A DNA stretch of 32,000 nt from Mycolicibacterium vaccae NBRC 14118 = CIP 105934 (GCF_001552715.1 NZ_BCRS01000002.1:67099-99098); one strand, 5' to 3'. Counted from the stretch's first letter, positions 10,507 to 26,323 are shown. The notes: a model not told the origin generated them from the letters alone. Numbers and translations: made by a program.

Positions 10507-11413
10507 CTTGCAGGGCTTGACGACACGTGACCGGAAAAGAGAGCGACGTCAAGTCTCGTGTTCGCCGAACAGATACGAACCAGGTGGAACCTTAGGGAGC
10601 CTGCTGGATGCTGACGAAAGTCAATGTGGTGCTGCGCAATTGGGTTCCGGCCATGCGCCCCCAATTCGTCACAGTGACGCTATTCGAGCGTGAAACGGGG
10701 AAGGGTGGCATAGTCCCGGGGGACTCCCGCAGCACGCGGAAACATCATCGATCAACACGTGTGGCGAAACAACCCGACGACCGGAGGGAATTCAGATCGC
10801 GGCCGCGAGTGAGTGATTGCACGGCCGGACATCAACGGGACGTTCAAGTTCCGACACCCGCAAAGCTACGGATGCGTTTGCAGGACAGCGCAATTAGGTC
10901 CAGCGGCGCAGACTCAATTTGTCACTGTGACGTATTGAATCGACCGAACGGCTCCGGTGACGGCCGGGACCGAGGGCGCTAACCACTGGCAATCCCGTCA
11001 GACAAGCCTCGCGGGCCGAGTCTGCGATGACCACCAGGCCGGCCTAGCCCGACCTCAGCCGATACAGACGATGGCCCGCCGCGGGCGACGATGATGGCGA
11101 CAGTTGGCGACGAGCAGCCGACCGACGGTACGGGGTAGTTCGGAGAGGGCTGGACAGAAACTGCAGCGGTGGACAGATCGCCCAGATCAGCGCAGACCTG
11201 CACAAACGACGCGCAAGGCCCACGTGGTCTGTTCTCGCAAGTCAGCATTGTGCCGATAAGCCACATTATGTCAACTAAAGCACTGCATACTGCATCAGAT
11301 GGATCATCCCTGAGCTCGTGCCGGCCACCACTCCCTCCCGTCGTTTCGGCCGCGTTGCAGGACTTCCTCACTGATCTCCCCGTCGGCCGGCGAGCCGGGG
11401 GCCTACGCCGTCC

Positions 11414-12424: not shown

Positions 12425-13587
12425 GGCTGGGATGTCCTTTTCTCGTTGACGCGAAGGGGAATCGACTCGAACGCCCGCGCCCAGGTGGACACCATCCGCG
12501 TGGGCGCACCGATGAGTTCACACTCGGGGAAGCGCGTGAACCATTGCTCGAAGGCGAGCCGGGCTTCCAAGCGCGCGAGACCTGAGCCCATGCAGAAGTG
12601 CACACCGTGACCGAATGACGCGTGGCGCTGGGCACGTCGTGTCACGTCGAATCGCTCCGGATCCGGGAACTCGCGTTCGTCGTGATTGGCTGCGCCCCAT
12701 ACCAGCAGCACCCGTGAGCCGGCCGGGATGCGTACGCCGTGCAACTCGACGTCGCGGGTTGCGGTCCGGGGCAGGGCCTGGGTTGGAGCCTCGATACGGT
12801 TGATCTCCTCGACCGCGGACAACCACAGTGACGGGTCGTGGCGCAGCAGATCCAGCTGATCCGGGTTCTGTAGGAGAAGCACCGTGCCGGAACCGATCAG
12901 GCTGGCTGTGGTGTCGTTGCCGCCGAGTACCAGCAGCAAACAGAATCCGAGCAACTCCTCGTCACTGAGCCGCTCGCCGTCGATTTCCGCGTTGAGCAGT
13001 GCGGTCATCATGTCTTCACGCGGTTCACGACGGCGCTCTTCGAGAAGTTCGGCGAACGTCGTGTAGATGCTCACGGCGGCGTTGAGCGCATCCTCGTTGT
13101 TCTCCGTCAACCCGATGAACGCCTCGGTCCATGCGCGCATCGGGGCGAGATACTTTTCGTCGAGGCCGATCATCCCGCCGACCGCGACGCTCGGGATGAC
13201 CGCGGCGTATTCGTGCTGGAATTCGCACGTGCCTTTGGCTGCGATGGTGTCGATCAGTCGTTCTATCGACGCACTGAGATCGGCTTCCATCCCGGCGACC
13301 CGGCGCGGGGTGAACACGCGAGATACGAGCTTGCGCAGCGCGGTCTGCCTGGGCGGATCCATGAAGATGAGTTGCGGCAGCAGCTCGTTGGCTTCCGCAA
13401 CCTTGCTGGAGAAGGTCTCGTGGTCTGCTGCGGCAGCCCACACATCGTCGAACCGGGTCAGTGCGTAGAACCCTTGGTCGGGGTCGTGGTACACGGGATG
13501 CTCATCGCGCATCGTGCGGTAGATGTCCCAAAGGTCGGTCTGGAACTCCGGGGTCGACGTGTTGTACAGAACTTCTGTTTCAGTCAT
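12421..13587 (-). CDS. Cytochrome P450 monooxygenase
   Basis: The heme-thiolate loop is FGHGVHFCMGSGLA, the I-helix is LVLGGNDTTASL and the ExxR motif is EEINRIE. ATG 13587 (MTETEV...) is preferred over the TTG at 13596 used by the track. Confidence 0.9.
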   Translation of the reverse strand: MTETEVLYNTSTPEFQTDLWDIYRTMRDEHPVYHDPDQGFYALTRFDDVWAAAADHETFSSKVAEANELLPQLIFMDPPRQTALRKLVSRVFTPRRVAGMEADLSASIERLIDTIAAKGTCEFQHEYAAVIPSVAVGGMIGLDEKYLAPMRAWTEAFIGLTENNEDALNAAVSIYTTFAELLEERRREPREDMMTALLNAEIDGERLSDEELLGFCLLLVLGGNDTTASLIGSGTVLLLQNPDQLDLLRHDPSLWLSAVEEINRIEAPTQALPRTATRDVELHGVRIPAGSRVLLVWGAANHDEREFPDPERFDVTRRAQRHASFGHGVHFCMGSGLARLEARLAFEQWFTRFPECELIGAPTRMVSTWARAFESIPLRVNEKRTSQP

Positions 13588-13620
13588 ACCAATCAAACCT
13601 GTCTCATCGGGTTGTGCCGG

Positions 13621-14373
13621 TCACAGCACGCTGTAGGCGCCGTCGACGACAAATGCCGATCCTGTGCAGTACGAAGCACTTTCAGTGCACAAGTACACGA
13701 TCGGCGACGCGATCTCTTCGGGTCTTGCGAACCGACCGAGGGGAATGTGGTCGACCTGCCCCTGCTTGATTTCCGGCACGTAATCCATCGGCGCCGTCAT
13801 CCGGGTCGCGACGACTCCCGGTACGACGGTGTTGAGCCGGATGCCGTCGGCCGCCCACTTCACGGCGAGATTGCGGGTCAACGCCAGCACACCTGCCTTC
13901 GCGGACCCGTATCCGGGGACCACCGGTACCGACCGGATCGCCGCCATCGACGCGAGCATCACCACGCTGGCTCCCCCGGGCGCCGTCGATCGCTTCAGGG
14001 CGTCGTGTAACCGCTCGGTCAACTTGAACGGCGCCAACAGGTTCACCTCCACCGACAGAGTGAAGCCTTCGGGGGTGGACTCGTCGAGCCCACCGGGAAA
14101 GTTGGCCCCCGCGTTGTTGATCAGGATGTCCAGCTCGGTAAACGACGCGGCGAGGGCGGCGATGCCGGCGTCATCGGTCAGCGACAGCTGCCGGTAGTCC
14201 AGGCCCGAGAGGTCGACGTCGTCGTAGTCGTCGGGCCCCTGCCGGGTGCCGGTGATGGTCACCGTCGCTCCGCTGTCACGCAGCAGCGACGCTGTCGCGT
14301 GACCGATCCCGCTGGTTCCGCCCGTCACCAGCGCGGTGGTGCCGGTGAAGTCGAACTGAACACGATTCGTCAT
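13621..14373 (-). CDS. Classical short-chain dehydrogenase/reductase
   Basis: The track ORF 13621..14697 was trimmed to ATG 14373 (MTNRVQFDFTG...). Motifs are TALVTGGTSGIG, NNAG and S...YGSAKAG. The ATG overlaps the stop of the upstream MBL gene (ATGA). Confidence 0.9.
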   Translation of the reverse strand: MTNRVQFDFTGTTALVTGGTSGIGHATASLLRDSGATVTITGTRQGPDDYDDVDLSGLDYRQLSLTDDAGIAALAASFTELDILINNAGANFPGGLDESTPEGFTLSVEVNLLAPFKLTERLHDALKRSTAPGGASVVMLASMAAIRSVPVVPGYGSAKAGVLALTRNLAVKWAADGIRLNTVVPGVVATRMTAPMDYVPEIKQGQVDHIPLGRFARPEEIASPIVYLCTESASYCTGSAFVVDGAYSVL

Positions 14374-15614
14374 GCGAGCTCCTCGATCTTCTTGTGCAGC
14401 CATGCCGACTCCCAGAAGTTGGTGCTGCCTCCCAGCAGCCGCTTGTGTGCAGCGACCAGAAGCTGCCGCGCATCCTGGTCGTCCGGGTAGTTGCGGTTGA
14501 CGATCTCGGCCAAGTGGATGGCCTGAACGGGTTCGTCCGCCTCCAGGAGGGCTGCCGCCCGACCCAGAACAGCTTCTGTCCCGGCAAGTTCCAACAGCGC
14601 GTGCTCTGCGGAGTCCGGGCCCTCGGCGTAGAGCTCGGTCGTAGAGCGGTGGTGGAACCAGCCTGCGTAGTTCTCCCAAATCGCTCGCACGTTCCACCGC
14701 ACCATCCCGTAGCCTTCACCGACCTGCAGCGCGGGCGGCAACACCACCTCACGCATCAGCGTGTGTACATCCTTGCCTGCGTTCATCCCCGCCACAGTCT
14801 GGTCGTGGATGGACAGCACGGCGTCACGAAGGCGAGTCAACTCCCAGTGGATCCGTTCCTTGCCGACGATCGGGCCGAAATGGCCGGTGAGAAGCGTCTC
14901 CGCTCCCAGCGCCCGCACCCTGTCGATGGACTCGACGACGGTGAGCGCATCGCGGTACCGGTCGCCGCGGATCGTCACCAGGTTCGGGATGTGCCCGAAT
15001 AGCGCCCCGAACACGTTGCCGCATAGGCAGACACCCTCGTCGGGCAGCCACACGACGAGGCTGTCGGTGGTTTCGCCGCCTGGTGTCGCATAGAGCTGCA
15101 GGTGCCGCCCGCCCAGTTCGATGAGGAATTCGTCGTCGAACACGATGGTCGGGGTGGGGGCACTCTGTGGCGGCGGCGTACCGAATCGAGCCGTGGCGTG
15201 GTTGATCGTGTCCATCACCTTGTCCACCCAGGCGAAGGCAGAATTCTGCGCGCGGAACGCGGCCAGAATCTCGTTGTCCCGTCGCCACATCTCCCAGTTC
15301 GACTGGGCGACAATGTCACTGTCCGGGTCGGCGACAGTGCCGACACCGCCCACGTGATCCACATGCCCCTGGGTGAGGATGACGTACCGGATCGGCGACG
15401 AATCGACGGCGTCGTAGTTGGCGCGGTGAACCGGCCCCTCGAAGCCCATCCCCGTGTTCACCACGATCCGGCCCTCGCCGGTCGTCAACAGGAAGGAGTT
15501 CGACAGGCCCGGTGACATCCAGATCCCCGGCGCGACCTCTTCGGCGGGCGCCCCGGCGCCGACGATGGCGTCGCCTCCCGGCCGGCTCAGATAAATGGGC
15601 TCGAATGTGCTCAT
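14370..15614 (-). CDS. MBL-fold hydrolase of the alkyl-sulfatase (type III sulfatase, SdsA1/Pisa1-like) family, without a C-terminal SCP2 domain
   Basis: 414 aa. The metallo-beta-lactamase motif reads ILTQGHVDHVGG, so Gln sits where the first His of HxHxDH is expected. Downstream, EGYGMVRWNVRAIWENYAGWF resembles the alkylsulfatase dimerisation-domain signature (GY..S.NV.AIY..Y.GW). The ATG overlaps the sulfotransferase stop (ATGA). Confidence 0.7.
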   Translation of the reverse strand: MSTFEPIYLSRPGGDAIVGAGAPAEEVAPGIWMSPGLSNSFLLTTGEGRIVVNTGMGFEGPVHRANYDAVDSSPIRYVILTQGHVDHVGGVGTVADPDSDIVAQSNWEMWRRDNEILAAFRAQNSAFAWVDKVMDTINHATARFGTPPPQSAPTPTIVFDDEFLIELGGRHLQLYATPGGETTDSLVVWLPDEGVCLCGNVFGALFGHIPNLVTIRGDRYRDALTVVESIDRVRALGAETLLTGHFGPIVGKERIHWELTRLRDAVLSIHDQTVAGMNAGKDVHTLMREVVLPPALQVGEGYGMVRWNVRAIWENYAGWFHHRSTTELYAEGPDSAEHALLELAGTEAVLGRAAALLEADEPVQAIHLAEIVNRNYPDDQDARQLLVAAHKRLLGGSTNFWESAWLHKKIEELA

Positions 15615-16873
15615 ACTTCGGCCCGCACATCGAACCGGTCGAAGTAGAAGGCGAACCTCGCCCGTATCTCTTCAGGGGTCCGCCCGAAATCCCGTGCGAG
15701 GTCGTAGCGCACCTGGCCGTGCTTGCCCCGGGGGTTGGCGTCGAGGTAGCTCTGGAAAGCCGCACTAGCCTCCGGCGTGAGTTCCGTTCCGTTGCACTCG
15801 TACAGCGTCTCCAGGATCGAAATCTCGTTGCCGTTGAGCTGATGGAACGGGATATCGACGCTGCGGTCCGCACCGATCAATTCGCGGTCGCGCACGCAGG
15901 CGCGCAGCAACCGTTCGATCCGGTCGATCCAGTACTCCACCAGTCCCTCGGGGTCGATCTCTTTGCGGCGCATCCGGTCCCCGTAGGCCAGCATGGTCAC
16001 GGCGGACTGGATGACGGCCACGGGGTCTCGGTGGGTGAACGCCACTGTGGCGTCCGGGAAGGTCTGCATCAGCGGTCCGAGTTGCTCGCAGTGTTGCGGC
16101 GATTTGAGGACCCACTGGCGTGGACCACGCAGGAAGGTCAGCGCCTGCAGAACAGTCCGCAGGTAGCCGTAATGTTCGCGCTGGTCGAGCCCGAGGTAGA
16201 AGTCTCGCCATTGCGGCACCCGGGCGTGCCACTCCAGGACATAGCTCGCGAAGTCGAGGTCGAGGAGCTCGACTTCCTCCTCGATGGCCTGCGGGAATCG
16301 GTCGTGCATCGCCTGCACCAGGGGCGTCATCATCTTGGCCGATTCGTGCTCTTCGACGCTGCGCGTGAATCTCGGGTCGACGCCGCCGACGTCGGGACCT
16401 TCACCCAGGTACGGAAAGGGTTCCTGGCTTTCCCAGTACGGCAGCGCGCGCCGACGGGTGTCGGCCGCTATGAGATTCACCAGATGCGTTGTACCCGAGC
16501 GGGGAAGACCGACGACGATGAACGGACTTTCGATCTCGATGGCGTGGATCTCCGGGTAGCGACGCAAGAGGTCGGCCAGCAGCAACCGCTGTGACAGCAG
16601 TCGGATGATCCGGTTACGGATGATCAGCCTGTTCAGGTTCGTGTTGCCCGAATCGGCGTCCACTGCCGCGGCGTATGCCTCCAGCCGGGGACGAAAGTCG
16701 CCCGGGCCGAAGTCGTCCATTCCAGTTCGCTCGATCGCCTCGTCGATCAGGGTGGCCGGATCGAGTTCGACCGATACCGCAGCCATGTGTTCGAGGACCT
16801 GCCGTTGGATCGGATCGAGCACCGGCGCTGTCAGATCGTCGATGTCCAGAACTGTTTGCGCCATCGCGGGCAT
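15611..16873 (-). CDS. Sulfotransferase family protein (PAPS-dependent type)
   Basis: 420 aa. The 5'-phosphosulfate loop is VVGLPRSGTTHLVNL and a 3'-phosphate motif is THRDPVAVIQS. An N-terminal helical region of about 110 aa precedes the catalytic core. Start is ATG 16873 or ATG 16864. Confidence 0.75.
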   Translation of the reverse strand: MPAMAQTVLDIDDLTAPVLDPIQRQVLEHMAAVSVELDPATLIDEAIERTGMDDFGPGDFRPRLEAYAAAVDADSGNTNLNRLIIRNRIIRLLSQRLLLADLLRRYPEIHAIEIESPFIVVGLPRSGTTHLVNLIAADTRRRALPYWESQEPFPYLGEGPDVGGVDPRFTRSVEEHESAKMMTPLVQAMHDRFPQAIEEEVELLDLDFASYVLEWHARVPQWRDFYLGLDQREHYGYLRTVLQALTFLRGPRQWVLKSPQHCEQLGPLMQTFPDATVAFTHRDPVAVIQSAVTMLAYGDRMRRKEIDPEGLVEYWIDRIERLLRACVRDRELIGADRSVDIPFHQLNGNEISILETLYECNGTELTPEASAAFQSYLDANPRGKHGQVRYDLARDFGRTPEEIRARFAFYFDRFDVRAEV

Positions 16874-16893
16874 CCTCTTCAGAATGGCAGTGT

Positions 16894-16919
16894 GTCGAAT
16901 ATTCGAGTTATGATTCGAC
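16894..16919. promoter_or_regulatory. Operator-like palindromes in the 49-bp divergent region between the sulfotransferase operon and its IclR gene
   Basis: GTCGAATATTCGAGTTATGATTCGAC contains the perfect 12-bp palindrome TCGAATATTCGA (16895..16906). A third half-site ATTCGAC (16913..16919) is inverted relative to GTCGAAT (16894..16900). TATGAT (16909..16914) is a possible -10 element placed to give a leaderless IclR mRNA at ATG 16923. Confidence 0.45.
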
Positions 16920-16922
16920 TAT

Positions 16923-17834
16923 ATGAACGCGAAGTTAGGCGAGGAAGACCCCGACGGTCAAGACCTTTCGCCCCCGACCCGACGTGTCGTCGCAGTCGTC
17001 GAGTTACTGGTCGATCGTGCCGGCACCCCGTTGACATTGGCTGAGATATGCCGTGAGCTGCGGATCAGCCGATCCACCGGGCACGCCATCTTGCACACAC
17101 TGCGCGTGTGCGAGTGGGTTCTGCGTGACCCACTCAGCGGGAAATACTCACCGGGCCCGGGCCTGCCTACCCCACCGTCGGCCGCGACACCGCTGTCACG
17201 CGTTCTCAGAGCGCCTCTGCACAAGCTGTGCACCGAGCTCGGCATGGCGGTCTGCATCTCGGAGGTGAGCGATGGTTCCATCACCGTCATCGACGCGGCG
17301 TCTCCCGGAGCCAATCCTCCCCCTGTTCGCGCCGGGGTGCGCCTGCCCTTCGTCGCACCGTTCGGCCGCGAGTTCGTCGCATGGGCACCCACAGCCGCGC
17401 ACGAGCGCTGGATGGACGCCGCCGGTGCGGCCAATGATGTCTACCGGGCGCGGATGCCAAAGGTGCTGACAGAGGTTCGGGAACGCGGATTCGGTATCGA
17501 ACGCCTCAGCGACCCCCTGCTGCGCGTGTACACCGCGCTGCTGGCCCTCGACAATGGAAACGGGCCGGATCCGGTCTCGGTTCGTCTGGCCGGTGCCGTC
17601 GCCGACCTGACAGTCGTCGACTTTCTACCCGACGAGTTGCCCGAGGTGGATGCCCATCCCCTCGCCACAATCTCGGCACCGATTTTCGATGAGCACGGCA
17701 CCGCCGTTATGTCGGTCTCCGCGCAGCCGTACCGTCAACTCACGCAGCAGCAGGTACGTGAAATCGGGGCACGGATCATCGACTTCGCCAGCGTGGCTGC
17801 GCCTCTCATGAGGCGCTCGGCGCCGTCGGCGTAG
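16923..17834 (+). CDS. IclR-family transcriptional regulator (divergent from the sulfotransferase operon)
   Basis: 303 aa. The N-terminal winged HTH is RRVVAVVELLVDRAGTPLTLAEICRELRISRSTGHAILHTLRVCEWV. The C-terminal domain has IclR-like length, with ...GFGIERL.... Confidence 0.7.
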   Translation: MNAKLGEEDPDGQDLSPPTRRVVAVVELLVDRAGTPLTLAEICRELRISRSTGHAILHTLRVCEWVLRDPLSGKYSPGPGLPTPPSAATPLSRVLRAPLHKLCTELGMAVCISEVSDGSITVIDAASPGANPPPVRAGVRLPFVAPFGREFVAWAPTAAHERWMDAAGAANDVYRARMPKVLTEVRERGFGIERLSDPLLRVYTALLALDNGNGPDPVSVRLAGAVADLTVVDFLPDELPEVDAHPLATISAPIFDEHGTAVMSVSAQPYRQLTQQQVREIGARIIDFASVAAPLMRRSAPSA

Positions 17835-17967
17835 CCATCGCGTCGATCGTCAGCAGGGCGCCGTACAGCACGGCGTCGGCGATCGAGCGCTTGCTCACGT
17901 TATGTGCCAGCCTCATACGCCGCACCTGACGGGAACCGCGCACGACACGTGGGCATCTCGTCAACGA

Positions 17968-18004
17968 TTATGCAGCAATCGAATATGCAGGGTTACCCGT
18001 AAAG
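17968..18004 (+). repeat. Island repeat copy A (leader plus 23-nt core; the 22-nt spacer seen in copies B-D is missing)
   Basis: The sequence is ttatgcagcaatc-GAATATGCAGGGTTACCCGTAAA. The core matches the C/D core at 21 of 23 positions and keeps TTAC-NN-GTAA. It is followed after 5 nt by CCATGGT (cf. CCAATGGT in C and D). Confidence 0.7.
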
Positions 18005-18436
18005 CATGCCATGGTCACCTGATGAATCAGGGACGCCTCAAGTGACCGCCACCCGCCGCGTGTTTCGTCCACTTCCTGTCTGTTCGATCTCAATAGATCT
18101 GGCGGCTTTCGCATCGAACCTGGGGATCGTGGCGCTCGCCCCAACCTCCATCGAAGTTCGAGAACTCGAGCGCCTGCTGCTGCGGTGCATAGCGTTCGAG
18201 TACGAGCAACTGGAGCTGCAGAAATCGATTCACGTACGTATTCTCCGGGTACTGGCCGCGCTTCCCGAGACCGCGGACTATCGGTAGCCGTACAGCCCGT
18301 CGACTCGGCCGTGGCGCGTATTTGTGGTCCGACAACGATGTGGGTCTAGTGAGCGCTTCGAACTCGGGTTACCGACGCGCCCTCGGTCTTGGCCCAGCCG
18401 CCGAGGCGTGGCGCGGGTAATAGCGCCGCCACAGGA

Positions 18437-20017
18437 TCAGCGCTTCACGCCCTGGACGCCGAACCGGCGCCCACCCCAGTTGAAGGGTCCGCCGCCCCAC
18501 CGTGTAACACCGGAGAACCGGCCGAGCTCCCACGTGTGGGCCAACAGGGTGAATGGCTGGATGCCGTCGGGAAACATGATCATCAGGCGCAGTTCGTGCG
18601 GGGAGACCAGGCTGCCCACCACGTCGAGCGACTCCCCGGCGTCCGGTGTGTACCGGACGCGAAGCGGCGCGACCGACGAGATCTCCAAGCGTCCCCCCCA
18701 CCCGTCGTGGTTCATGTCCCAGGTGCCGATCCACTGACTGGCATCGAATCCCCGGTTTCCTAGCGTGTGAATAGGGTCCCGACTCATGGTTACCCCGAAC
18801 GGGATTCCCGACCACCATGTCTGGCCGGCAGCGTTGTCTGGATCCCAGGAGAACACATACGCGCGGAACTCTTGACCGGTCAGTTTGCCCGCGGGCACCC
18901 GCTTGGTCGAGTCGGCAACCCAGAAGTGCAACTGCTGGCCGTCATCCTCGACGTATCCGTTGACGGCGTATCCCTTGCCGTCGCGGAAATAGGTCCCCAG
19001 TTTGGTCGGCTTGCCCTCTGCCTGGCGGTAATCGGTCGTCCGGCGGATCACCAGGTGGCCCGTCCAGCCGTCGTGGTCGACGTTCCAGCGGCCGATCCAC
19101 CAGGCATCCTTCTGCACTGAGCTCTCGGGCGGGCACACCGCGGTGATGTAGTGCGCCCCCAGGATCGCCGGAGCACCGAAGGGCACTCGAATGAAGGTGT
19201 TCTGACCCCTCGAATCCTTCACGAGCCATTCGCGACTGCCCCGGTCATAACCGACGATGAGATAGCAGTGCCCTGGAATATCGGCGATCACCTCGTGGCC
19301 CTGCGACAGCACGGCCTGGATCAGGATGTCCGAGGGGTCGTCGCCCAGCGACCGGAAGCCGGTCACGCGGTACCGGGCCCGATATCGCGATGCCAGCGGG
19401 ATGTGCCCCTGCGTGTATTCGAAGGCATCGATTTGGCTTTGCGGCGTGGACTCTTCGGAGATCAGTGCGCCCGCACCGGGCGTGTTGAGGCGCAGCGTGT
19501 TCATGTCGCTGTGTGACAGATACCGCGCGTGGCGTTCCAACGGGATGGCGCTGCGGGCGAGTTTGGTGACGATGTCCGAGGAGCCCTGGAAGCCCCAGAA
19601 CGAACTGTTGTTCTCATGCAGCAGTTTCGGGCTGCTGTGGAACCCTGGGATCAGTTCGCCCGCCTTGTTGATGTGGAATGCGAACTGCTCGGACAAGTCG
19701 AGGGTGACGTGATGCTGGCGTCGGTAAGCGGCCTCCATGCCCGCGCACGTGGCGAATGCGTAACAGGTGCCCCGGTCCAGCTGATCCTTGAACGGCGTCT
19801 GCCAATGAGCCAGCGAGACCACTTCCGGCAGGAAATCGAACAGGCCGGTGAGCGTCTTTGGCGCGGGGAACCGTCGATAGGAGAGTGCATTGAGGCGGCG
19901 AACCTCCCCGATGTGCTGTGCCACGAACGCCGGATCGTCATCGATCACCGCCGCCGATAGCACACGCGTCGGCCAGGTGGTGGAGAACACCTCCGAGGGT
20001 GCGGATGTTGTCGTCAT
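18437..20017 (-). CDS. Papain-like (C1-type) cysteine peptidase fused to two tandem C-terminal repeat domains; no signal peptide
   Basis: 526 aa. The catalytic signature is collinear with papain: Q79-x5-C85 in KDQLDRGTCYAFA (papain QGSCGSCWAFS), H250 in IPGHCYLIVGYD (papain DHAVAAVGYG) and D268 in EWLVKDSRG (papain IKNSWG). Residues ~306-412 and ~428-526 form an internal repeat. Repeat 1 reads WWIGRWNVDHDGWTGHLVI...GTYF...YAVNGY...LHFWV...FRAYVFSWD...GQTWWSGIPFG. Repeat 2 reads QWIGTWDMNHDGWGGRLEI...VRYT...VVGSL...LRLMIMF...FTLLAHTWE...GVTRWGGGPFNWG. The N-terminus MTTTSAPSEVFSTTWPTRVLSAAVIDDD has no hydrophobic signal core. Confidence 0.8.
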   Translation of the reverse strand: MTTTSAPSEVFSTTWPTRVLSAAVIDDDPAFVAQHIGEVRRLNALSYRRFPAPKTLTGLFDFLPEVVSLAHWQTPFKDQLDRGTCYAFATCAGMEAAYRRQHHVTLDLSEQFAFHINKAGELIPGFHSSPKLLHENNSSFWGFQGSSDIVTKLARSAIPLERHARYLSHSDMNTLRLNTPGAGALISEESTPQSQIDAFEYTQGHIPLASRYRARYRVTGFRSLGDDPSDILIQAVLSQGHEVIADIPGHCYLIVGYDRGSREWLVKDSRGQNTFIRVPFGAPAILGAHYITAVCPPESSVQKDAWWIGRWNVDHDGWTGHLVIRRTTDYRQAEGKPTKLGTYFRDGKGYAVNGYVEDDGQQLHFWVADSTKRVPAGKLTGQEFRAYVFSWDPDNAAGQTWWSGIPFGVTMSRDPIHTLGNRGFDASQWIGTWDMNHDGWGGRLEISSVAPLRVRYTPDAGESLDVVGSLVSPHELRLMIMFPDGIQPFTLLAHTWELGRFSGVTRWGGGPFNWGGRRFGVQGVKR

Positions 20018-20334
20018 GACTGAATCCTTGGACGGCGGGAGTGCCGACGCACGAGTAGTCGGATACCTGCATCGGCCCGGGGCATTACTGGGCCGATGAG
20101 CTGCGCGACGACCGCGCGGCGTTCAATCGCAAGTGGTTTCAGCCAGCGATACAGGGCGCGTTCTTGGTGATCAACGATGCGATAGAACTCCACCACCGGC
20201 GAACCACCATCCAGTCCCCACCGGACTAGAGCAATAGCAAAGTGTGGAGCTTCACTGAGCGCATGGCGGCTAGGCGTAGCGGTCGGGCCTTCTCCCCGTG
20301 AGTCGCTGGGGCGGCATCTTCTTAGCCGGTGCAC
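20014..20334 (-). CDS. Possible small protein translationally coupled to the peptidase gene (true start probably internal)
   Basis: The ORF stop overlaps the peptidase ATG (ATGA at 20014..20017). The C-terminal part VVEFYRIVDHQERALYRWLKPLAIERRAVVAQLIGP... looks protein-like. The 5' third contains rare CTA/AGA codons, so GTG 20334 is doubtful. No recognisable family. Confidence 0.3.
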   Translation of the reverse strand: MHRLRRCRPSDSRGEGPTATPSRHALSEAPHFAIALVRWGLDGGSPVVEFYRIVDHQERALYRWLKPLAIERRAVVAQLIGPVMPRADAGIRLLVRRHSRRPRIQS

Positions 20335-21546
20335 TTGTGCGGCAGGAACTTCCTGACGACGCGAATCGCTGGCCAGTCGAGCGCGGAGGTGGTTGTGGCG
20401 CGGCGGTGGTGGTTGCCGGTCGATAACCGCAGTGTGAAGGAAAAAAGGGCATCTTTCAGTTGTTAGCGATAGGCCTAGGGGTCGTCGGTGCGGCGCTACT
20501 AATCTCAGGCTTCTTCATCCCAGCATCTTCGAAACCGATTGGAGCACAGGGTTACACGCGGTCGCAAGGTTCCTCTTGAAAAGTTGATGGGCGTTGGGGT
20601 AGCCGTAGTCGCACTCACGATGCTGACGCCGGCACACTTGCCGACGCAGACCCACGATTTTTCAGCCCAAATGAAGAGAGGTGGCTCAACCACTTTCGGA
20701 AAAATCTGGGCGTGAATATCGTTGACCCCATCGCGGCGGAAGAGACGGGCTATCAGCGATGTACTGCTGCGATGTATTCGCCCGATGTCGATACGGCCCG
20801 GACGCGCATGGATGCCATTCTCGCCGACTCCGTCTAGCCTCTCACCAATATTCAGAGACTCGCCATCCAAGGGTCCGCTCTAAATCTGCTCTGCCCTGGC
20901 AGCTAGACAATTGGACCGCTAGTCGCGTGTAGCGGGTGCTTCCTGAAATGGCGTCTCACCGAGCAGCACGTTCGTGAAGGACTGCCGATGAACGAAGCTG
21001 AAATACCGGCCCCAGCCTACCGCGCGCTTGGCCGGCCACGATGGCGGCGTTTGCCAACTGCCTTCCGCAATAATATTGCGGCACAACGATTTGCGAATCC
21101 AGAATGCATCCGACTAGCGCACCGCCGCAGCCATCGCCGCGCCGATGGCAACGAGCATATCGTTGTTGGCCTGGTTCGGACTGGGGACTGGGACTCCCCC
21201 AGCCCGCACTACACACTCATCTGCAGGAGGATCCGACGAGGCTGGTGCAGTCCTGCTGATCTGGCCGCGCTTAACTCCTCAGCAGTGCGTGGCCCGCGCC
21301 CTGCGGGCCTGACGGCGTAGAAATATCGGGCGTCCTGAACAAACTCCGCAGACACGTCGACCAATAGATGCCCGAGCCCGACCACAAATCCTCCGATTCG
21401 ATCAACCGGTACTTCCCGAGAAAATCAGCGAACTGCGGACTACGCCCCTCGCTACGCCGCGGACACCCTACTGAGGTTGATCGCGACAAGCATCCGGGCT
21501 CTCCCCGGCTCGACCGACCACATGTACCCCACGCGCGTGGGTCCGG

Positions 21547-21612
21547 GAATGCGGCGGAATCGAATATGGCGGGTTACCAGTAAGTGACTGTGTACTGCGC
21601 TGCCGCCCAATG
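21547..21612 (+). repeat. Island repeat copy B
   Basis: The sequence is gaatgcggcggaatc-GAATATGGCGGGTTACCAGTAAG. The core matches at 19 of 23 positions and TTAC-CA-GTAA is intact. CCAATG follows exactly 22 nt after the core, as in C and D. Confidence 0.65.
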
Positions 21613-21640
21613 CGCCCAACGACAGATGACCTGCGACGTA

Positions 21641-22090
21641 ATGGCTCGACTCGCCGACGAATGCCACACTCGTACGGTGGATACCCGTGAGGTCGTCGCC
21701 GAACTGCTTCGCCGCATCGCCGCCGGCGACCCGGCAAGGATAGCCGAGCTATATGCCGAGTCGATCTCGTGGAAGCTGAACTGGCCGGCCGGAGACTACG
21801 CCGCTGTCGTCCCGTGGATCCAGCAGCGATCCGACCGTGCCGGTGTCAACGAGCACTTCAAGCTCATCATCGAGCATCACATCACGAATCAGAGTTCTGC
21901 GGAGGTGTTTTCTGTGCTGGTCGACGGCGCAGACGCAATCGTGCTCGGCGAGCTCCACAACACCGCCAAACCGACTGGGCGAAGCTACGACGCCGCTTTC
22001 GCATTGCACCTCACTGTGGAGCACGGGCTGATCACCCGCCACCACATCTACGAGGACAGCCTTTCGGTGTTACAAGCTTTCGTGGTGTGA
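21641..22090 (+). CDS. NTF2-like / SnoaL-like (ketosteroid-isomerase fold) small protein
   Basis: About 149 aa from ATG 21641 (alternative ATG 21626; the track GTG 21584 lies inside repeat B). The pattern VVAELLRRIAAGDPARIAELYAESISWKL...FSVLVDGADAIVLGEL...FALHLTVEHGLITRHHIYEDS is typical of NTF2-like domains. Confidence 0.6.
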   Translation: MARLADECHTRTVDTREVVAELLRRIAAGDPARIAELYAESISWKLNWPAGDYAAVVPWIQQRSDRAGVNEHFKLIIEHHITNQSSAEVFSVLVDGADAIVLGELHNTAKPTGRSYDAAFALHLTVEHGLITRHHIYEDSLSVLQAFVV

Positions 22091-22127
22091 GAGCCTCGCT
22101 GAATTTGTGGATGCCACAAGCGGCTGA

Positions 22128-22380
22128 CCAGCCCCACTGGTTTCCGGCACTGTTGGGACTGCCGCGCCGCTCCCCGGCTGGCTGCTGCTGCGGCAGGCTC
22201 AGGTAGCCAATGACGCTCTGTTGCACGTGCTTTCGGATCAGGACCAGCAGTTCTACGAGGGCAAGATAACCGCAGCGCGGTTCTTCGCTCGCACGGCATT
22301 GCCTCAGATAGCGGCGGCTCGCGTGACTGTTGCGGGTGCCGACTTCGGGGTGATGGATCTGCCCGAAGACGCGTTCTGAG
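22128..22380 (+). pseudogene. 3'-terminal remnant of a FadE5-type acyl-CoA dehydrogenase (about 83 codons, no N-terminal part)
   Basis: The frame opens after a TGA at 22125..22127 and reads ...PGWLLLRQAQVANDALLHVLSDQDQQFYEGKITAARFFARTALPQIAAARVTVAGADFGVMDLPEDAF*. This resembles, from memory, the C-terminal tail of long mycobacterial acyl-CoA dehydrogenases (FYxGKxxxAxFFxxxxLP...LxExAF). There is no start codon or upstream catalytic domain. Confidence 0.55.
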
Positions 22381-22480
22381 CGATCAGCGGATCGAAAACG
22401 CCGTCGGAGACGCCCGCCACCCGCGACAAGATCGCATACCTACGGAAGTGTTGCGCGACCTCTGCAGGCACTCGCCGGAA

Positions 22481-22551
22481 GATGTGCAGGAATCGAATAT
22501 GCAGCGTTACCAGTAAATCACTGCATATTACGTTGCCGACCAATGGTTTTG
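22481..22551 (+). repeat. Island repeat copy C (full architecture)
   Basis: The sequence is gatgtgcaggaatc-GAATATGCAGCGTTACCAGTAAA-(22 nt)-CCAATGGTTTTG. The 23-nt core and the 12-nt distal box are identical to copy D with identical spacing. Only this copy has a perfect 9-bp hairpin, AATATGCAG (22496..22504) pairing with CTGCATATT (22521..22529). It lies 14 nt beyond the vapC stop. Confidence 0.8.
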
Positions 22552-22564
22552 ATACGTCGCACCG

Positions 22565-22987
22565 TTAGATGGTCCCCCGTTCCAGAACCCATTGATGCCG
22601 GAATGGTAGTACCTCTGCGGCAATCTCAAAGTCGGCGTCATAGTGAATCAGCGTCACATCATGGGCCCCTGCGATGGTGGCGATCAGGAGGTCGGCCATG
22701 CCGACGGCGCGGTGGCGACCAGTGCTGGCGAGCTGCCGTTGCGCGCCGAGTGCCATCTGCCAGTGCTCGTCATCGGTTGGCAGGTACTCATAGGCCAGAC
22801 GGCGGTCTGACCGGAGTTGTTCATAGTCTTTAGGGCTGCGGGCGCTGTAGAGCGCCTCGGCGTCGAGCTGAGCGGTGGTTGCGACCAATCCGGCCTCAAT
22901 GAGCGGGGCCAGCCTGGAGGCAACCTCGGGGTGCTTCATCCGTGCTGCCGCGCTGGTATCGACGAGGTGCCGAGCGATCAGCGCCAC
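22565..22987 (-). CDS. vapC: PIN-domain ribonuclease toxin VapC
   Basis: 140 aa. The sequence HLVDTSAA...D.LIATIAGAHDVTLIHYDADFEIAA carries the acidic PIN residue pattern. The GTG start overlaps the vapB 3' end by 10 nt. Confidence 0.9.
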   Translation of the reverse strand: MALIARHLVDTSAAARMKHPEVASRLAPLIEAGLVATTAQLDAEALYSARSPKDYEQLRSDRRLAYEYLPTDDEHWQMALGAQRQLASTGRHRAVGMADLLIATIAGAHDVTLIHYDADFEIAAEVLPFRHQWVLERGTI

Positions 22988-23184
22988 ACGTCACCACGTT
23001 GATCGGGGTCCGCCATCTCCCCTAGGCCGCCGGCTTGCAGCCAAGCGATCTGGCGTGCACGAGCAGACGAGGCTGCTGCCTGCTGCAATGCGATGCGCAC
23101 GGTGTCCGATACGCCGGACGTTTTGAGCTCCTTCTGCGCGGCGGCCAGCAGGTCATCGTCGAGATCGATCAGTCGCTTTGTCAT
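22978..23184 (-). CDS. vapB: VapB-type antitoxin (ribbon-helix-helix/DUF2191-like)
   Basis: 68 aa. MTKRLIDLDDDLLAAAQKELKTSGVSDTVRIALQQAA is the typical N-terminus of this VapB family. It lies immediately upstream of vapC and overlaps it. Confidence 0.85.
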   Translation of the reverse strand: MTKRLIDLDDDLLAAAQKELKTSGVSDTVRIALQQAAASSARARQIAWLQAGGLGEMADPDQRGDVWR

Positions 23185-23201
23185 CCGACAAGCCTCCCAG
23201 T

Positions 23202-23231
23202 GTATATACCAAGTTGAGGATCAGTATATAC
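23202..23231. promoter_or_regulatory. Two copies of the self-complementary octamer GTATATAC upstream of vapB (candidate VapBC operator/promoter)
   Basis: GTATATAC occurs at 23202..23209 and 23224..23231, 22 bp centre to centre (about two helical turns). The sites start 18 nt upstream of the vapB ATG, and GGGAGG is the RBS. Confidence 0.5.
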
Positions 23232-23270
23232 AAAGTTCGGGGTCGCGCCAGCGCTCGTAGACCTAGATCG

Positions 23271-23341
23271 GATATGCAGTAAATGAATATGCAGCGTTAC
23301 CAGTAAAGTACGTCCTATTGCCCTGCACACCAATGGTTTTG
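23271..23341 (+). repeat. Island repeat copy D (full architecture)
   Basis: The sequence is gatatgcagtaaat-GAATATGCAGCGTTACCAGTAAA-(22 nt)-CCAATGGTTTTG. It lies between the vapB promoter and the Nudix gene stop, and sits 790 bp from copy C in the same orientation. Confidence 0.8.
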
Positions 23342-23392
23342 TTCTGCGCTGTCCCGGCGACATTGAGACTGGACTCAGATGCTGGCCCTAGT

Positions 23393-23815
23393 TCAATTCA
23401 ACAACGTGCGACGCCGAAGAGCCGATGCGGCCTGCCGCGTCGCCTCGGTCAGCGGCTCGGGCAGATTATCGAGATCGAACCACCGCATCGCCGACAACGC
23501 CTGCGGTTCGAGAACGGAGGGTGTGCCGTCATAGCGTTCGATGAGATAGACCGGAGCCACCCAGTGTTGGCCGGCCTGACGATCGATCTGGTCGACGACA
23601 CATAGGAGCAGGCTCGGTTCGATGGAGATGCCGAGTTCTTCGCGGATCTCGCGCGTCACCGCGGCCGCCACGGGCTCAAACGGGTCGACCTTGCCTCCCG
23701 GGAGGCCCCAGCAACCCGCCTCCGGATTGCGCCTGCGGCGGACAAGCAGCAGGTTACCGTCCTGGACGATCGCTGCACCACATCCGACGCGTGGGCCAGA
23801 GCCATCAGCGTTCAT
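23393..23815 (-). CDS. Nudix hydrolase
   Basis: The Nudix box is perfect: GGKVDPFEPVAAAVTREIREELGI (Gx5Ex7REUxEExGU). ATG 23815 (MNADGSGPRVGCGAAIVQDG...) is preferred to the track start 23866. It overlaps the 3' end of the LOG gene by 11 nt. Confidence 0.85.
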   Translation of the reverse strand: MNADGSGPRVGCGAAIVQDGNLLLVRRRRNPEAGCWGLPGGKVDPFEPVAAAVTREIREELGISIEPSLLLCVVDQIDRQAGQHWVAPVYLIERYDGTPSVLEPQALSAMRWFDLDNLPEPLTEATRQAASALRRRTLLN

Positions 23816-24386
23816 CGCGCCTGATCCACTTCGTCTCCGTTGAGAGTTGATAGGTGAGTAGTCCATTCAGCAAGTCAGTGGGTGAATCCGAAGAGAGAAG
23901 CATCTGTCGATGGACGGGCTTCAAGAAACTCTCGTCGACAACATGGTCGAGGAAGGCCAGCAATCCGTCGTAGAAGTTGAGGGTGTTGAGCAACCCGCAC
24001 GGTTTTGCATGGGCGCCAAGCTGAGTCCACGTCCACACTTCGAAAATCTCTTCGAGAGTGCCGATTCCTCCAGGCAGGGCAATGAAGGCATCGGACAGCT
24101 CAGCCATCAACGCCTTGCGCTCATGCATGGAATCGACGATCCGCAAATCCTGCAGGCCGGTATGCGCGACTTCGTGTTCAACAAGGGCCCGCGGGATCAC
24201 CCCGATAACCTCGCCGCCAGCGGCCAAAGCCGAATCTGCAACTGCTCCCATGAGTCCGACGGCGGCTCCCCCGTAAACCAGACCGATCTGGCGCTCAGCC
24301 AGTAGTGCGCCCAGTTCCATTGCCGATGTGCGATATTGGTCATGGCGACCCAAATTCGAGCCGGAGAAAACGCAGATCCGATTCAT
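23805..24386 (-). CDS. LOG-family protein (TIGR00730-type; cytokinin riboside 5'-monophosphate phosphoribohydrolase-like)
   Basis: 193 aa. Motifs are ICVFSGS, GLVYGGAAVGLMGAVA, RK and the hallmark ALPGGIGTLEEIFE (PGGxGTxxE). AAGGA lies 8 nt upstream of the ATG. Confidence 0.9.
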   Translation of the reverse strand: MNRICVFSGSNLGRHDQYRTSAMELGALLAERQIGLVYGGAAVGLMGAVADSALAAGGEVIGVIPRALVEHEVAHTGLQDLRIVDSMHERKALMAELSDAFIALPGGIGTLEEIFEVWTWTQLGAHAKPCGLLNTLNFYDGLLAFLDHVVDESFLKPVHRQMLLSSDSPTDLLNGLLTYQLSTETKWIRRDER

Positions 24387-24690
24387 CCATCAATCCTTAC
24401 ATGAGCTTCTCGGCCAAAGTTTCTTGGGGATGCTGAGCGGGACCTGACCGCCTCCGATTTCGCGGCGTTGCCGGCGCAATATCGGCTCACCTACGCCTTG
24501 GCCATGGCCCACCCACGCTCTGCCGGAAGCCCATCTCGACAACGCCGCGCCGAGGCTGCAGACACTGACCACCCAAGCGTGCCTGGCAGCCCAACGCTGA
24601 CGGCCGCGTTGGAACGCGGTTAATCTCCGGCCGCGCAGATGGTGTGAGATACATAGGTTCGAGTGAGCCTGTCGCAGAAGCATTCTGCCT

Positions 24691-24724
24691 GCATCTGCAG
24701 CTTGAGTATCAGCGACCGGAGTGA
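24691..24724 (+). repeat. Possible degenerate fifth copy (E) of the island repeat
   Basis: gcatcTGCAGcttGAgTAT-CAGCG--ACCgGagTgA aligns to the leader plus core consensus only with gaps and several mismatches. The TTAC-NN-GTAA core is lost. This match is weak and made by eye only. Confidence 0.2.
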
Positions 24725-24982
24725 TTCCGTGCCCCGGTGCCGGGATGTCAGCGGGCTACGGCTACCCACCCTCCTCGCCACAGTGGCTTGACCCCACCCC
24801 GAATCTGCCCCGTCCTTCGCGCTTTCGACTTCTCGGAGTGCTGTACGCGCCTACGGCCCGTATCGCTGCGATCGACCACGAGTGCACCGACCCTGCCGAA
24901 CTTGCCCACAGGATCTGCAGTCACAGGTGCTACGAGAGCGGCCCGACTAATCGGTGAGCTTCGCCAGGGTGGACACTATGAC

Positions 24983-25534
24983 GTGGCCCTTTCTGCAACA
25001 GTGTTCAAATTCGAACTTGGCGTCTCCGATGTCGATCACGGTTACTACGCCGATCACGCGCTGACCGTGGCCCGTCATCCCAGTGAGACCGATGAGCGGA
25101 TGGTGGTGCGCTTGTTGGCGTTTGGATTGCGCGCACACCGGCTCAGCGAAGTCGACGGTGAGTTGGCGTTCGGCGCGGGCCTGTCCACCCCTGGCGTGCC
25201 GGACTTGCGGCTCTCGGACTACACGGAGCGGACCCTGGAGTGGATTGTCGTCGGTCAGCCCGATGAACGGGTCTTGGGCAAGGCGGCCAGCAAGGCCGAC
25301 CAGGTGCTGCTGTTCCCATTCGCCGCCGGCGTGGCCACCTGGTGGCGCACCGTGGGACCCAAAGTGGCGGGTCTGCCGAATCTGTCCGTCGTGCAGATTC
25401 CGCACGCGCCGGTGCAACAACTGGCCCAGAGCGTCGATCGCCGGGTCTCGGCGCAGGTCATGGTGATGGAAGGTCAGGTAACGATGACCGTGGGCGGTAT
25501 CGACGCCACCTTTACGCCCGAGCCATTGAAGTAG
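24983..25534 (+). CDS. yaeQ: YaeQ-family protein (PD-(D/E)XK-like fold family)
   Basis: The track ORF 24737..25534 was trimmed to GTG 24983 (VALSATVFKFELGVSDVD...). It is collinear with my recollection of E. coli YaeQ (MALKATIYKATVNVADLDR...[21 protein letters not shown]...). Matching segments here are LTVARHPSETDERMVVRLLAF, LEWIVVGQPDER and NLSVVQI. At 183 aa it compares with about 181 aa in E. coli. Confidence 0.8.
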   Translation: MALSATVFKFELGVSDVDHGYYADHALTVARHPSETDERMVVRLLAFGLRAHRLSEVDGELAFGAGLSTPGVPDLRLSDYTERTLEWIVVGQPDERVLGKAASKADQVLLFPFAAGVATWWRTVGPKVAGLPNLSVVQIPHAPVQQLAQSVDRRVSAQVMVMEGQVTMTVGGIDATFTPEPLK

Positions 25535-25605
25535 ACCTCGGAGCCCGAGGTGCTGCGCCCCGGGACTCTCGTTGGCTGGGACCTACTGCACGCCGCAGGC
25601 AACGC

Positions 25606-25649
25606 CCAGGATCACGCTAGGTGCGCTAGCGCGACTAGCGTGATCCTGG
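25606..25649. promoter_or_regulatory. 44-bp near-perfect palindrome immediately upstream of the Phd/YefM-PIN operon (candidate operator; could also act as the yaeQ terminator hairpin)
   Basis: The sequence is CCAGGATCACGCTAG-gt-GCGCTAGCGC-ga-CTAGCGTGATCCTGG. The arms are perfect 15-bp repeats and the centre GCGCTAGCGC is itself palindromic. It ends 12 nt before the GTG at 25662. Confidence 0.5.
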
Positions 25650-25661
25650 TAGCGTCGATTT

Positions 25662-25901
25662 GTGGACACGACGGTGACGAGTACGGAGGCCAAGAACCGG
25701 CTCAATGCCCTTCTTGCCGAAGTGGAACGCACGGGCAAGTCCGTGACGATCACGAATCACGGCCGCCCCGTCGCCAAATTGGTGCCCGTCGAACTGATGC
25801 CGCGAAAGTTCGGGCAGCTGCCAAACCTTCTGGTGCCCAAGGACTTCGACGAGCCCCTGCCAGATTCGGAACTGGCGCGCTGGGAAAGCGCCGAAACGTG
25901 A
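25662..25901 (+). CDS. Phd/YefM-family type II antitoxin
   Basis: 79 aa. The sequence VTSTEAKNRLNALLAEVERTGKSVTITNHGRPVAKLVPVE is a canonical Phd/YefM N-terminal domain. The stop overlaps the toxin GTG (GTGA). Confidence 0.85.
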   Translation: MDTTVTSTEAKNRLNALLAEVERTGKSVTITNHGRPVAKLVPVELMPRKFGQLPNLLVPKDFDEPLPDSELARWESAET

Positions 25902-26287
25902 ACGTGCTGCTGGACACGCACACACTTCTATGGCTGGCGAGTACGCCGTCGGAGCTGGACGCCTCCGCGCTGGCCATCATCGCCGATCCGAACACCAACG
26001 TGTGCGTGACCGCGGCCTCGGCCTGGGAAATCTCGATCAAGACTCGGTTGGGCCGCCTTGACGGTGAGGCACTCCTGTCGGCCTGGGCCGACATCATTGC
26101 TGATATGACCACAACCGAATTGCCCATCGAGTCTCCCGATGCGATCCTGGCCGGCCGACTCCCCTGGGAGCACAAGGATCCCTTCGATCGCGTGATCGTC
26201 GCCCAGGCTCTACGGCGAAATCTCACCATCGCGACCCGCGACGCGAGGATCCTCGATGCCGCCCTGGCCCCAACCTTGCGAACCTGA
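25898..26287 (+). CDS. PIN-domain toxin (VapC-like)
   Basis: The track ORF 25550..26287 was trimmed to GTG 25898. VNVLLDTHTLLWL...SAASAWEISIK...HKDPFDRVIVAQA...TRDARI is the LLDT/EI.IK/DPFDR pattern of this PIN subgroup. 129 aa. Confidence 0.85.
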   Translation: MNVLLDTHTLLWLASTPSELDASALAIIADPNTNVCVTAASAWEISIKTRLGRLDGEALLSAWADIIADMTTTELPIESPDAILAGRLPWEHKDPFDRVIVAQALRRNLTIATRDARILDAALAPTLRT

Positions 26288-26323
26288 GTCATTCGCCTAT
26301 TGGCAGTGTGCGCCGTCCGGTGC

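Follow-up and report, generated by a model that had tools for sequence, protein, structure and literature searches.

The closest described relatives of the locus reported here are integrons, integrative mobile elements exploiting Xer recombination (IMEX), the staphylococcal cassette chromosome (SCC), the pdif modules of Acinetobacter, and the IS200/IS605 (IS608) and IS91 insertion sequences. The locus lies in a 32,000-nt stretch of Mycolicibacterium vaccae NBRC 14118 = CIP 105934 (the window; coordinates are counted from its first letter). It contains a repeat of about 70 nt whose co-oriented copies follow dif, the dimer-resolution site of the chromosome, and it is probably a dif-anchored array of gene cassettes.

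The likeness to integrons is considerable. In both, small cassettes, most of them with one gene or one operon, stand in long arrays of uniform direction and occur in different contexts; toxin-antitoxin pairs are abundant, and some cassettes have no open reading frame (ORF). Both also place the recombination site 3' of the cargo gene, keep the enzyme off the cassettes and have one privileged point of entry, at an end of the array. Unlike in integrons, the chromosomal repeat here is a hybrid of the ends of two cassettes over its full length, there is no IntI, attI or Pc, the site fails to match attC, the entry point is dif, and the hosts are Actinomycetota. To our knowledge, integrons have been reported to be essentially absent from Actinomycetota. 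IMEX at dif (CTX/RS1/TLC of Vibrio cholerae, the gonococcal genetic island, filamentous prophages of Xanthomonas and Yersinia) share the absence of an integrase, the stacking in one orientation at the terminus, and an intact dif kept at one end, which allows repeated integration. However, the junctions here are no hybrids of dif and attP, the exchange point falls beyond the 28 bp of dif and not in its centre, and the units are gene cassettes of 0.1-7 kb, not phage or island genomes. SCC elements accrete in tandem at one conserved site (staphylococcal orfX/rlmH), with short direct repeats as bounds and recombinase-less units mobilised in trans, but some of them carry Ccr large serine recombinases and their target is the 3' end of a gene near oriC; no ccr-like gene was found here. 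The Acinetobacter pdif modules are likewise discrete, often carry toxin-antitoxin or accessory genes, are bounded by short sites and carry no recombinase. Their bounds are genuine XerC/XerD sites of alternating orientation on plasmids, whereas the copies here are co-oriented and none is dif-like. Finally, the IS200/IS605 and IS91 elements are marked at their ends by signals in structure and sequence instead of by long simple inverted repeats, and insert in an orientation-specific manner 3' of a short retained target, repeatably at one place; in contrast to the present units, they encode their own HUH transposase and have dispersed targets, not a single genomic site.

A repeat search of the window gave one family of four 71-nt copies, A to D, on the same strand (17967-18037, 21548-21618, 22481-22551 and 23271-23341, with spacings of 3581, 933 and 790 between successive copies), in line with the four co-oriented copies reported in a preliminary description of this DNA. 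The 23-nt core has no mismatch in copies C and D and two in A; B lies beyond three mismatches, consistent with the four claimed for it, and the window holds no other match at up to three mismatches (0.00 expected from shuffles). The string GTTACCNGTAA occurs exactly four times in the window against 0.27 expected. The tandem ATATGCAG duplication noted earlier is genuine and corresponds to two direct 11-mers, direct repeats 1 and 2 (DR1 and DR2), and the CCAATG box is in register in B, C and D, copy A having a different 3' module. A decayed fifth copy proposed at 24691, suggestive when aligned by hand, was rejected: the alignment is poor, and a profile made from 96 copies for searching the window returned nothing there even at E<=50. 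What had been overlooked is a copy consisting of a right half only, which abuts dif (11249-11276), outside the region then described.

The aligned copies consist of DR1 (GAATAYGNNGG), 4 nt (AATC), DR2 (GAATATGNNGG), GTTACC-N-GT, AAA, 2-4 nt, an inverted 11-mer (CNNCRTATTS) and a 3' module of several classes; class 1 is the palindrome TTCATCAGATGAATCA, and in classes 2 and 3 a short GTTG...CAAC hairpin precedes TTTC. A copy is the seam at which two cassettes meet. Its left half is the right end (RE) of one cassette, with two direct complementary 11-mers (GAATAYGNNGG) 4 nt apart and then GTTACC-AGT, and its right half is the left end (LE) of the next, with AAA, 2-4 nt and one 11-mer. The earlier placing of the copies at module boundaries is therefore right, but not the view of the copy as a single element, since it is made of the joined ends of two neighbours.

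This anatomy was examined by typing the variable bases of the 11-mers as GCAG, GGCG, GGAG or GACG, a categorical test which replaced a crude complementarity score that had given a weak signal (p=0.014). DR1 and DR2 agree strongly within a copy (p=5e-16). For the inverted 11-mer on the right side of a seam, the type shows no association with DR1 and DR2 of its own copy (Fisher p=0.42; 36 of 88 agree); it is associated with those found one seam further downstream (odds ratio 22, p=0.003; 30 of 49 agree). Junctions rebuilt from the RE and LE of one cassette fold as single-stranded DNA better than random pairings (p=0.0014) and better than the observed seams (p=0.007), which do no better than random pairings themselves; the chromosomal copies also fold as single-stranded DNA no better than shuffles (z from -0.84 to +0.93). 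Together, the end-type association and the junction folding indicate that the unit spans from one AGT/AAA to the next (the slash marks the seam), with matched inverted ends. Pairs of loci sharing one flank only place the exchange point within about -2 to +4 of AGT/AAA: some have a common left flank through ...GTTACCAGT and diverge 1-4 nt later, and in others everything to the right is common and the left side differs. These pairs and the junctions at dif, described next, point to exchange within a few bases of AGT/AAA.

The chromosomal dif at 11249-11276 (0 matches expected by chance) is of the same actinobacterial type as that of F. alni, CACGCCGATAATGCACATTATGTCAAGT (PMC3025954). Mycobacterial dif sites are 28 bp long, with an XerC arm, a 6-bp centre and an XerD arm, and are exploited in the Xer-cise method (10.1101/758037). 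The position of dif is that of the cumulative GC-skew maximum of the window, which contains the skew switch of the replication terminus, the skew changing across about 13-24 kb. The window maps to CP011491.1 (6,235,754 bp), which we take to be Mycolicibacterium vaccae 95051, at about 3.34 Mb, that is, at 53.6% of the chromosome.

At its 5' end the array has dif as a fixed anchor. In each of the 20 dif-containing loci of the genome scan (window included) dif is on the strand of the copies and 5' of the array, with no copy upstream; in M. conspicuum, which is outside these 20, dif likewise lies 5' of the array. Of the 118 pattern-derived loci of 8 kb, 19 contain the 12-mer ACATTATGTCAA. A cassette LE (AAA, inverted 11-mer, 3' module) follows directly after the XerD arm in 19 of the 20 dif loci, the sole exception being L018, where no recognisable LE follows dif. 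Cassettes are joined to dif at the outer end of the XerD arm, some 11 bp away from the dif centre; the base preceding a seam is not constant (AAGT, AACT and AATT at dif; CAGT, CGGT and CCGT at seams). Genes to the left of dif are not conserved between loci. Because an LE abuts the XerD arm, the array of the window begins at dif, 6.7 kb before copy A. The cassette array of the preliminary description thus stands, but not its start, since the first cassette is the ADH/P450/SDR/sulfatase/sulfotransferase/IclR block that runs from dif. Similarly, the earlier remark that no integrase, transposase or tRNA target is visible is correct for the recombinase domain and the tRNA, but the target itself is visible as the dif at 11249-11276.

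The distribution of the repeat was studied by scanning for the exact 18-base core GAATATGNNGNGTTACCNGTAA in one genome per species, and further copies were found with a profile of the conserved 5' part. The scan gave at least 118 loci, about 105 of them from Mycobacterium, Mycolicibacterium, Mycolicibacter, Gordonia, Dietzia, Nocardia and Rhodococcus and the remainder evident chance matches in unrelated phyla; these counts, and the one-locus-per-contig figures, are those among the matches listed. All copies are on one strand in 48 of the 48 loci with two or more copies, at a spacing of 186-4630 bp (median 1.2 kb, with a cluster near 790-800 bp). Each contig above 1 Mb among the matches listed, two of 6 Mb included, has the repeat at one locus, and in the window the copies are confined to 5.4 kb downstream of dif, which is not the pattern of a repeat scattered over the genome. 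The repeat is also found on four large Mycobacterium plasmids and one Rhodococcus replicon, and phages gave no match. In the four Mycobacterium plasmid regions the paired copies are co-oriented and toxin-antitoxin cargo is nearby.

The content of the arrays varies between genomes. The 93 complete cassettes measure 99-6724 bp, and ORF-less cassettes of 99-209 bp are among the cassettes seen. One MazEF cassette, about 720-793 bp long, is shared by eight genomes that belong to three genera; its members are 70-98% identical inside and 18-36% identical, which is the chance level, 50-150 nt outside both seams, and two of the eight directly abut dif. Homologues of the vapBC cassette of the window have different neighbours in loci L049, L091 and L090. 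This cassette is the fourth of the array in the window, the first, touching dif, in M. conspicuum, and deeper in the array in AP025524.1, at 55% of the 6.26-Mb chromosome. Instead of being always inherited as one block, the modules vary independently with breakpoints at the core, as seen for MazEF and vapBC. This, and the single-locus distribution, support the earlier idea of serial site-specific integration or a cassette array. The other contig with the IclR protein of the window is 100% identical over 17.5 kb.

The features of the window are as follows.
11249-11276, plus strand: chromosomal dif, TGTGCCGATAAGCCACATTATGTCAACT (XerC arm, 6-bp centre, XerD arm), which departs from the actinobacterial consensus at two positions.
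11277-11310, plus strand: LE of cassette 1, AAAGCACTGCATACTGCATCAGATGGATCATCC, abutting the XerD arm; CTGCA-type inverted 11-mer and class-1 palindrome.
11277-18000, plus strand: cassette 1 (6.7 kb), with the dif seam at one end and the left half of copy A at the other.
17966-18000, plus strand: left half of copy A, the RE of cassette 1, with DR1 GATTATGCAGC, AATC, DR2 GAATATGCAGG and GTTACCCGT.
18001-18037, plus strand: right half of copy A, the LE of cassette 2, with class-1 module ...CACCTGATGAATCA.
18001-21581, plus strand: cassette 2 (3.6 kb), with a C1-like peptidase gene at 18437-20017 on the minus strand.
21547-21618, plus strand: copy B, in which the RE of cassette 2, with direct repeats of GGCG type and its seam after 21581, meets the LE of cassette 3.
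21582-22514, plus strand: cassette 3 (933 bp), with a plus-strand SnoaL-like gene and, as a remnant, 52 aa of Acyl-CoA_dh_C (Pfam).
22480-22551, plus strand: copy C, the RE of cassette 3 (GCAG type, seam after 22514) and the LE of cassette 4 (CTGCATATT, CCAATGGTTTTG).
22515-23304, plus strand: cassette 4 (790 bp), with vapB-vapC on the minus strand and its own operator/promoter region (Pfam).
23270-23341, plus strand: copy D, the RE of cassette 4 (GCAGCG type, seam after 23304) and the LE of the next, oldest unit.
23305-24400, minus strand: distal unit with Nudix and LOG genes and no recognisable right end after it.

By hand comparison of the end sequences, all four units from dif to copy D have matching ends, the left ends of cassettes 2 and 3 being degenerate; the CTGCA-type LE of cassette 1, for instance, matches the GCAG-type direct repeats at its other end in copy A. 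Pfam bears out the gene calls made earlier for the modules (C1-like peptidase, SnoaL/NTF2-like, Acyl-CoA_dh_C remnant, PIN and VapB, Nudix, LOG) and assigns to cassette 1 Zn-ADH, P450, SDR, MBL/alkyl-sulfatase and sulfotransferase genes on the minus strand and an IclR-like regulator on the plus strand. The lower GC content noted for the island is present and modest (0.59-0.62 at 20-24.5 kb versus 0.63-0.70 elsewhere). The Acyl-CoA_dh_C remnant at 22221-22379 represents the last 52 codons of an acyl-CoA dehydrogenase, and about 1.5 kb of cassette 2 after the peptidase gene (20018-21547) has no Pfam-supported ORF; both look like debris of decayed cargo. The peptidase gene has an internal 55-nt direct repeat (18680-18734 and 19046-19100, 76% identical, 366 bp apart), which suggests two tandem repeats of about 120 aa in the C-terminal half of the protein. 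Just upstream of vapB, at 23199-23240, paired GTATATAC-containing repeats are kept in the cassettes of L049, L091, L090 and M. conspicuum, and are probably the VapB operator. The distal Nudix/LOG unit is probably the decayed end of the array. Beyond it, a yaeQ gene (24937-25554) is homologous to genes inside repeat-bounded cassettes of L026, L015 and L002, and a Phd/PIN pair (25615-26288) to L098 3225-3900, a repeat-bounded cassette there. No seams were detected around either in the window, and the array may once have reached about 26.3 kb and decayed since.

ORF clustering across the loci showed recurrent cargo consisting of two PemK/MazF groups, PIN, CBM_2, LGFP and isochorismatase; first cassettes also carry GMC oxidoreductase, Rieske oxygenase, P450 and RES toxin genes. 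Almost all members of the recurrent gene clusters are opposite to the repeat strand (e.g. 24 of 25, 13 of 13 and 8 of 9), and cargo is thus transcribed toward dif. From the GC skew, this transcription would be co-directional with replication on this side of the terminus.

A search for the enzyme gave no candidate of general occurrence. No recombinase domain was present in the Pfam-scanned genes of the window, no recombinase recurred in three or more of the approximately 105 loci (all-against-all clustering of 2,971 ORFs), motif screens for a conserved recombinase beside dif or in the arrays were empty, and the four Mycobacterium plasmid regions share no neighbouring recombinase. The large ORFs of first cassettes are metabolic or toxin genes. 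Plasmid p1 of M. gordonae (L128) has a single, intact and internally matched site, which may be an unrecombined junction, 3 kb from a tyrosine recombinase, with an IS3 fragment between; this recombinase was rejected as the general enzyme because the other plasmids have no such neighbour. The same region has three clustered tyrosine-recombinase genes in the style of a "recombinase in trio" at 13930-20082, a few kb from the repeat, and a fourth at 6008-7054 beside a MucR-like gene. Elsewhere, Qat-type defence genes (KAP NTPase, QatB, TatD) adjoin the array in L127 (AP025524.1; 12525-15087 and 16481-20426) and in L126, an IS21 insertion being the difference between two otherwise matching assemblies. 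The Qat-plus-repeat segment is also present on a 380-kb plasmid (L129, AP025525.1) of the strain to which the AP025524.1 chromosome belongs. Loci retrieved through RES-toxin homologues as a possible link to M. tuberculosis had neither copies nor dif.

Taken together, we consider it likely that the region is a dif-anchored gene-cassette array, built from circular cassettes inserted by a trans-acting enzyme. A cassette would be transiently circular, its RE-LE junction making the complete site, in which two inverted 11-mers about 15 bp apart would surround GTTACCAGTAAA with a third, direct 11-mer alongside; the predicted junction of the vapBC circle is ...GAATATGCAGCGTTACCAGT/AAATCACTGCATATTACG.... 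A recombinase supplied in trans would bind the 11-mers, and strand exchange between the circle junction and a short sequence common to the dif edge and existing seams would insert the cassette in one fixed orientation, repeated insertion stacking the cassettes. The invariant dif would be a conserved landing pad, as tRNA genes are for other integrases; toxin-antitoxin cassettes would stabilise the array, and the fixed orientation would keep the cargo co-directional with replication. The enzyme is most likely a dedicated recombinase or transposase encoded elsewhere rather than XerCD, because the seams are outside the dif centre and have no Xer arms.

Several points weigh against this interpretation. 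No catalyst was found in the window or recurring near the arrays. Adjacency to dif is not obligatory, as the copies in the four Mycobacterium plasmid regions inspected (20 kb each) have no dif up to 10 kb away. The end-type association comes from 33 informative pairs (a 2x2 comparison of GCAG and GGCG), and 19 of the 49 typed pairs disagree. The LE class of the vapBC cassette differs between M. conspicuum and the window, which indicates that LE and cargo are not always linked. The one close relative retrieved (L120) is identical to the window, and gain or loss within the species is not seen there. The mobility of the cassettes is deduced from comparisons between species, not from an observed circle, empty site or insertion, and sequence alone cannot separate recombination of this kind from target-specific transposition, considered below.

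The adjacency of the array to dif, in all 20 dif-containing scan loci and in M. conspicuum, is also what would be expected if host XerC and XerD integrated the cassettes at dif in the manner of the CTX, TLC and VGJ phages and the gonococcal island, with the repeats as leftover hybrid dif/attP sites. The absence of an integrase from the cassettes would agree with this, as would an XerC-arm-like [GA]CCGATAA at a fixed position in one LE class (13 cassettes) and XerC-arm scores that are slightly raised around seams (mean 7.0 versus 2.9 bits). However, Xer exchange takes place at the borders of the 6-bp dif centre, whereas the exchange point here is about 11 bp outside it, at the outer edge of the XerD arm. 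All older junctions should moreover still show TTATGTCAAGT, the XerD arm of dif, where GGGTTACCAGT is found at the seams; on a full-dif weight matrix none of 177 seams scores above 3.7 bits, true dif sites reaching 44-53, and no dif is near the plasmid-borne copies. A canonical Xer mechanism was rejected on the junction sequences and the weight matrix, and Xer-dependent integration as a general explanation is in our view unlikely.

The motif [GA]CCGATAA is found at +59 to +61 from the seam in class-3 LEs, with no XerD arm after it (L013, L038, L043, L049, L068, L072, L105, L110, L113 and others; also L128 10090-10105), where about 0.009 would be expected per 160 nt. By a crude classifier, 8 of 20 dif junctions have the class-1 palindromic LE, which is rarer among internal seams (21 of 179), and CATCTGATGCAAC, which is related to the class-1 palindrome, occurs to the left of dif in a few genomes. 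The motif in 13 class-3 LEs and the enrichment of the palindrome at dif, with the crudeness of that classifier, are hints that Xer may have an accessory role.

The cassettes might instead be non-autonomous transposons with terminal inverted 11-mers, moved to a specific target by a DDE or HUH (IS200/IS605, IS91) transposase; the 11-mer would lie six nt from each tip, with a second 11-mer at one end, and AGT would be a 3-bp duplication or the target. The ends are indeed symmetric (AGT, 6 nt, 11-mer ... 11-mer, 6 nt, AGT), AGT stands on both sides of every cassette, the ends are matched and give an RE-LE junction with hairpin potential, and orientation-specific insertion beside a fixed sequence resembles that of IS608 or Tn7. 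Yet no transposase recurs near the arrays, the tips do not have TG...CA or TGT...ACA, and the base before the seam is variable, so that neither a strict duplication nor a tetranucleotide target is conserved. We regard transposition of this kind as quite unlikely.

An integron-type system, with the repeats as attC sites for an IntI-family integrase, would account for co-oriented repeats that separate small, often single-gene and toxin-antitoxin-rich cassettes, for the repeat at the 3' end of most genes, and for the ORF-less cassettes. It is nevertheless very improbable: intI, attI and Pc were absent from the 32-kb window and none recurred in the loci, the anchor is dif and not attI, and the invariant core GTTACCNGTAA does not fit RYYYAAC...GTTRRRY and has no RYYYAAC partner. 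An attC site pairs with itself, whereas between the left and right halves of a chromosomal copy complementarity does not exceed chance; the core misfit and the lack of self-pairing uphold the earlier judgement that the repeat is not an attC site. Accretion of an island at a tRNA gene finds neither a tRNA or tmRNA target nor an element integrase in the window. A generic intergenic repeat (a repetitive extragenic palindrome or miniature inverted-repeat transposable element, a small RNA, a terminator or an operator) is hardly credible: the copies are short, partly palindromic, always intergenic and often just 3' of a gene, but they are always co-oriented downstream of dif at one locus per large contig listed, between-genome homology breaks exactly at them, their folding does not surpass that of shuffles, consensus scans place no promoter-like or terminator-like site on any copy, and Rfam 15 has no match in the window at the gathering score (the sole match at E<=1 being a chance miRNA elsewhere).

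A full-text search that included motif strings found no published description of this system; it covered few subscription-journal papers, and an earlier description is possible. The concept of a site-specific cassette array is known, the site and anchor found here appear not to be, and there is a substantial chance that the system is a distinct one. More tentatively, and with somewhat less than even confidence, we suggest that it could be a third gene-capture platform across the Mycobacteriales, beside integrons and Xer-dependent IMEX, with either a new recombinase or an off-centre use of Xer and dif as its machinery.

The array calls for an enzyme that would recognise a set of three 11-mers and cleave at the outer end of the XerD arm. 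If it is found, a site of about 60 bp together with an invariant, essential target might become an integration tool for mycobacterial genetics. The array would also constitute a hypervariable hotspot at the replication terminus, of relevance to genome comparison and typing schemes. It suggests that mycobacteria and their relatives own a cassette system with a different site and landing pad. As MazEF, VapBC and RES cassettes recur, and appear to move between species and onto plasmids, the array offers a testable origin for part of the large toxin-antitoxin complement of mycobacteria. If the reading as a third platform is true, mycobacteria would have in it a major way of acquiring toxin-antitoxin, defence and metabolic genes and of exchanging them between chromosomes and large plasmids.

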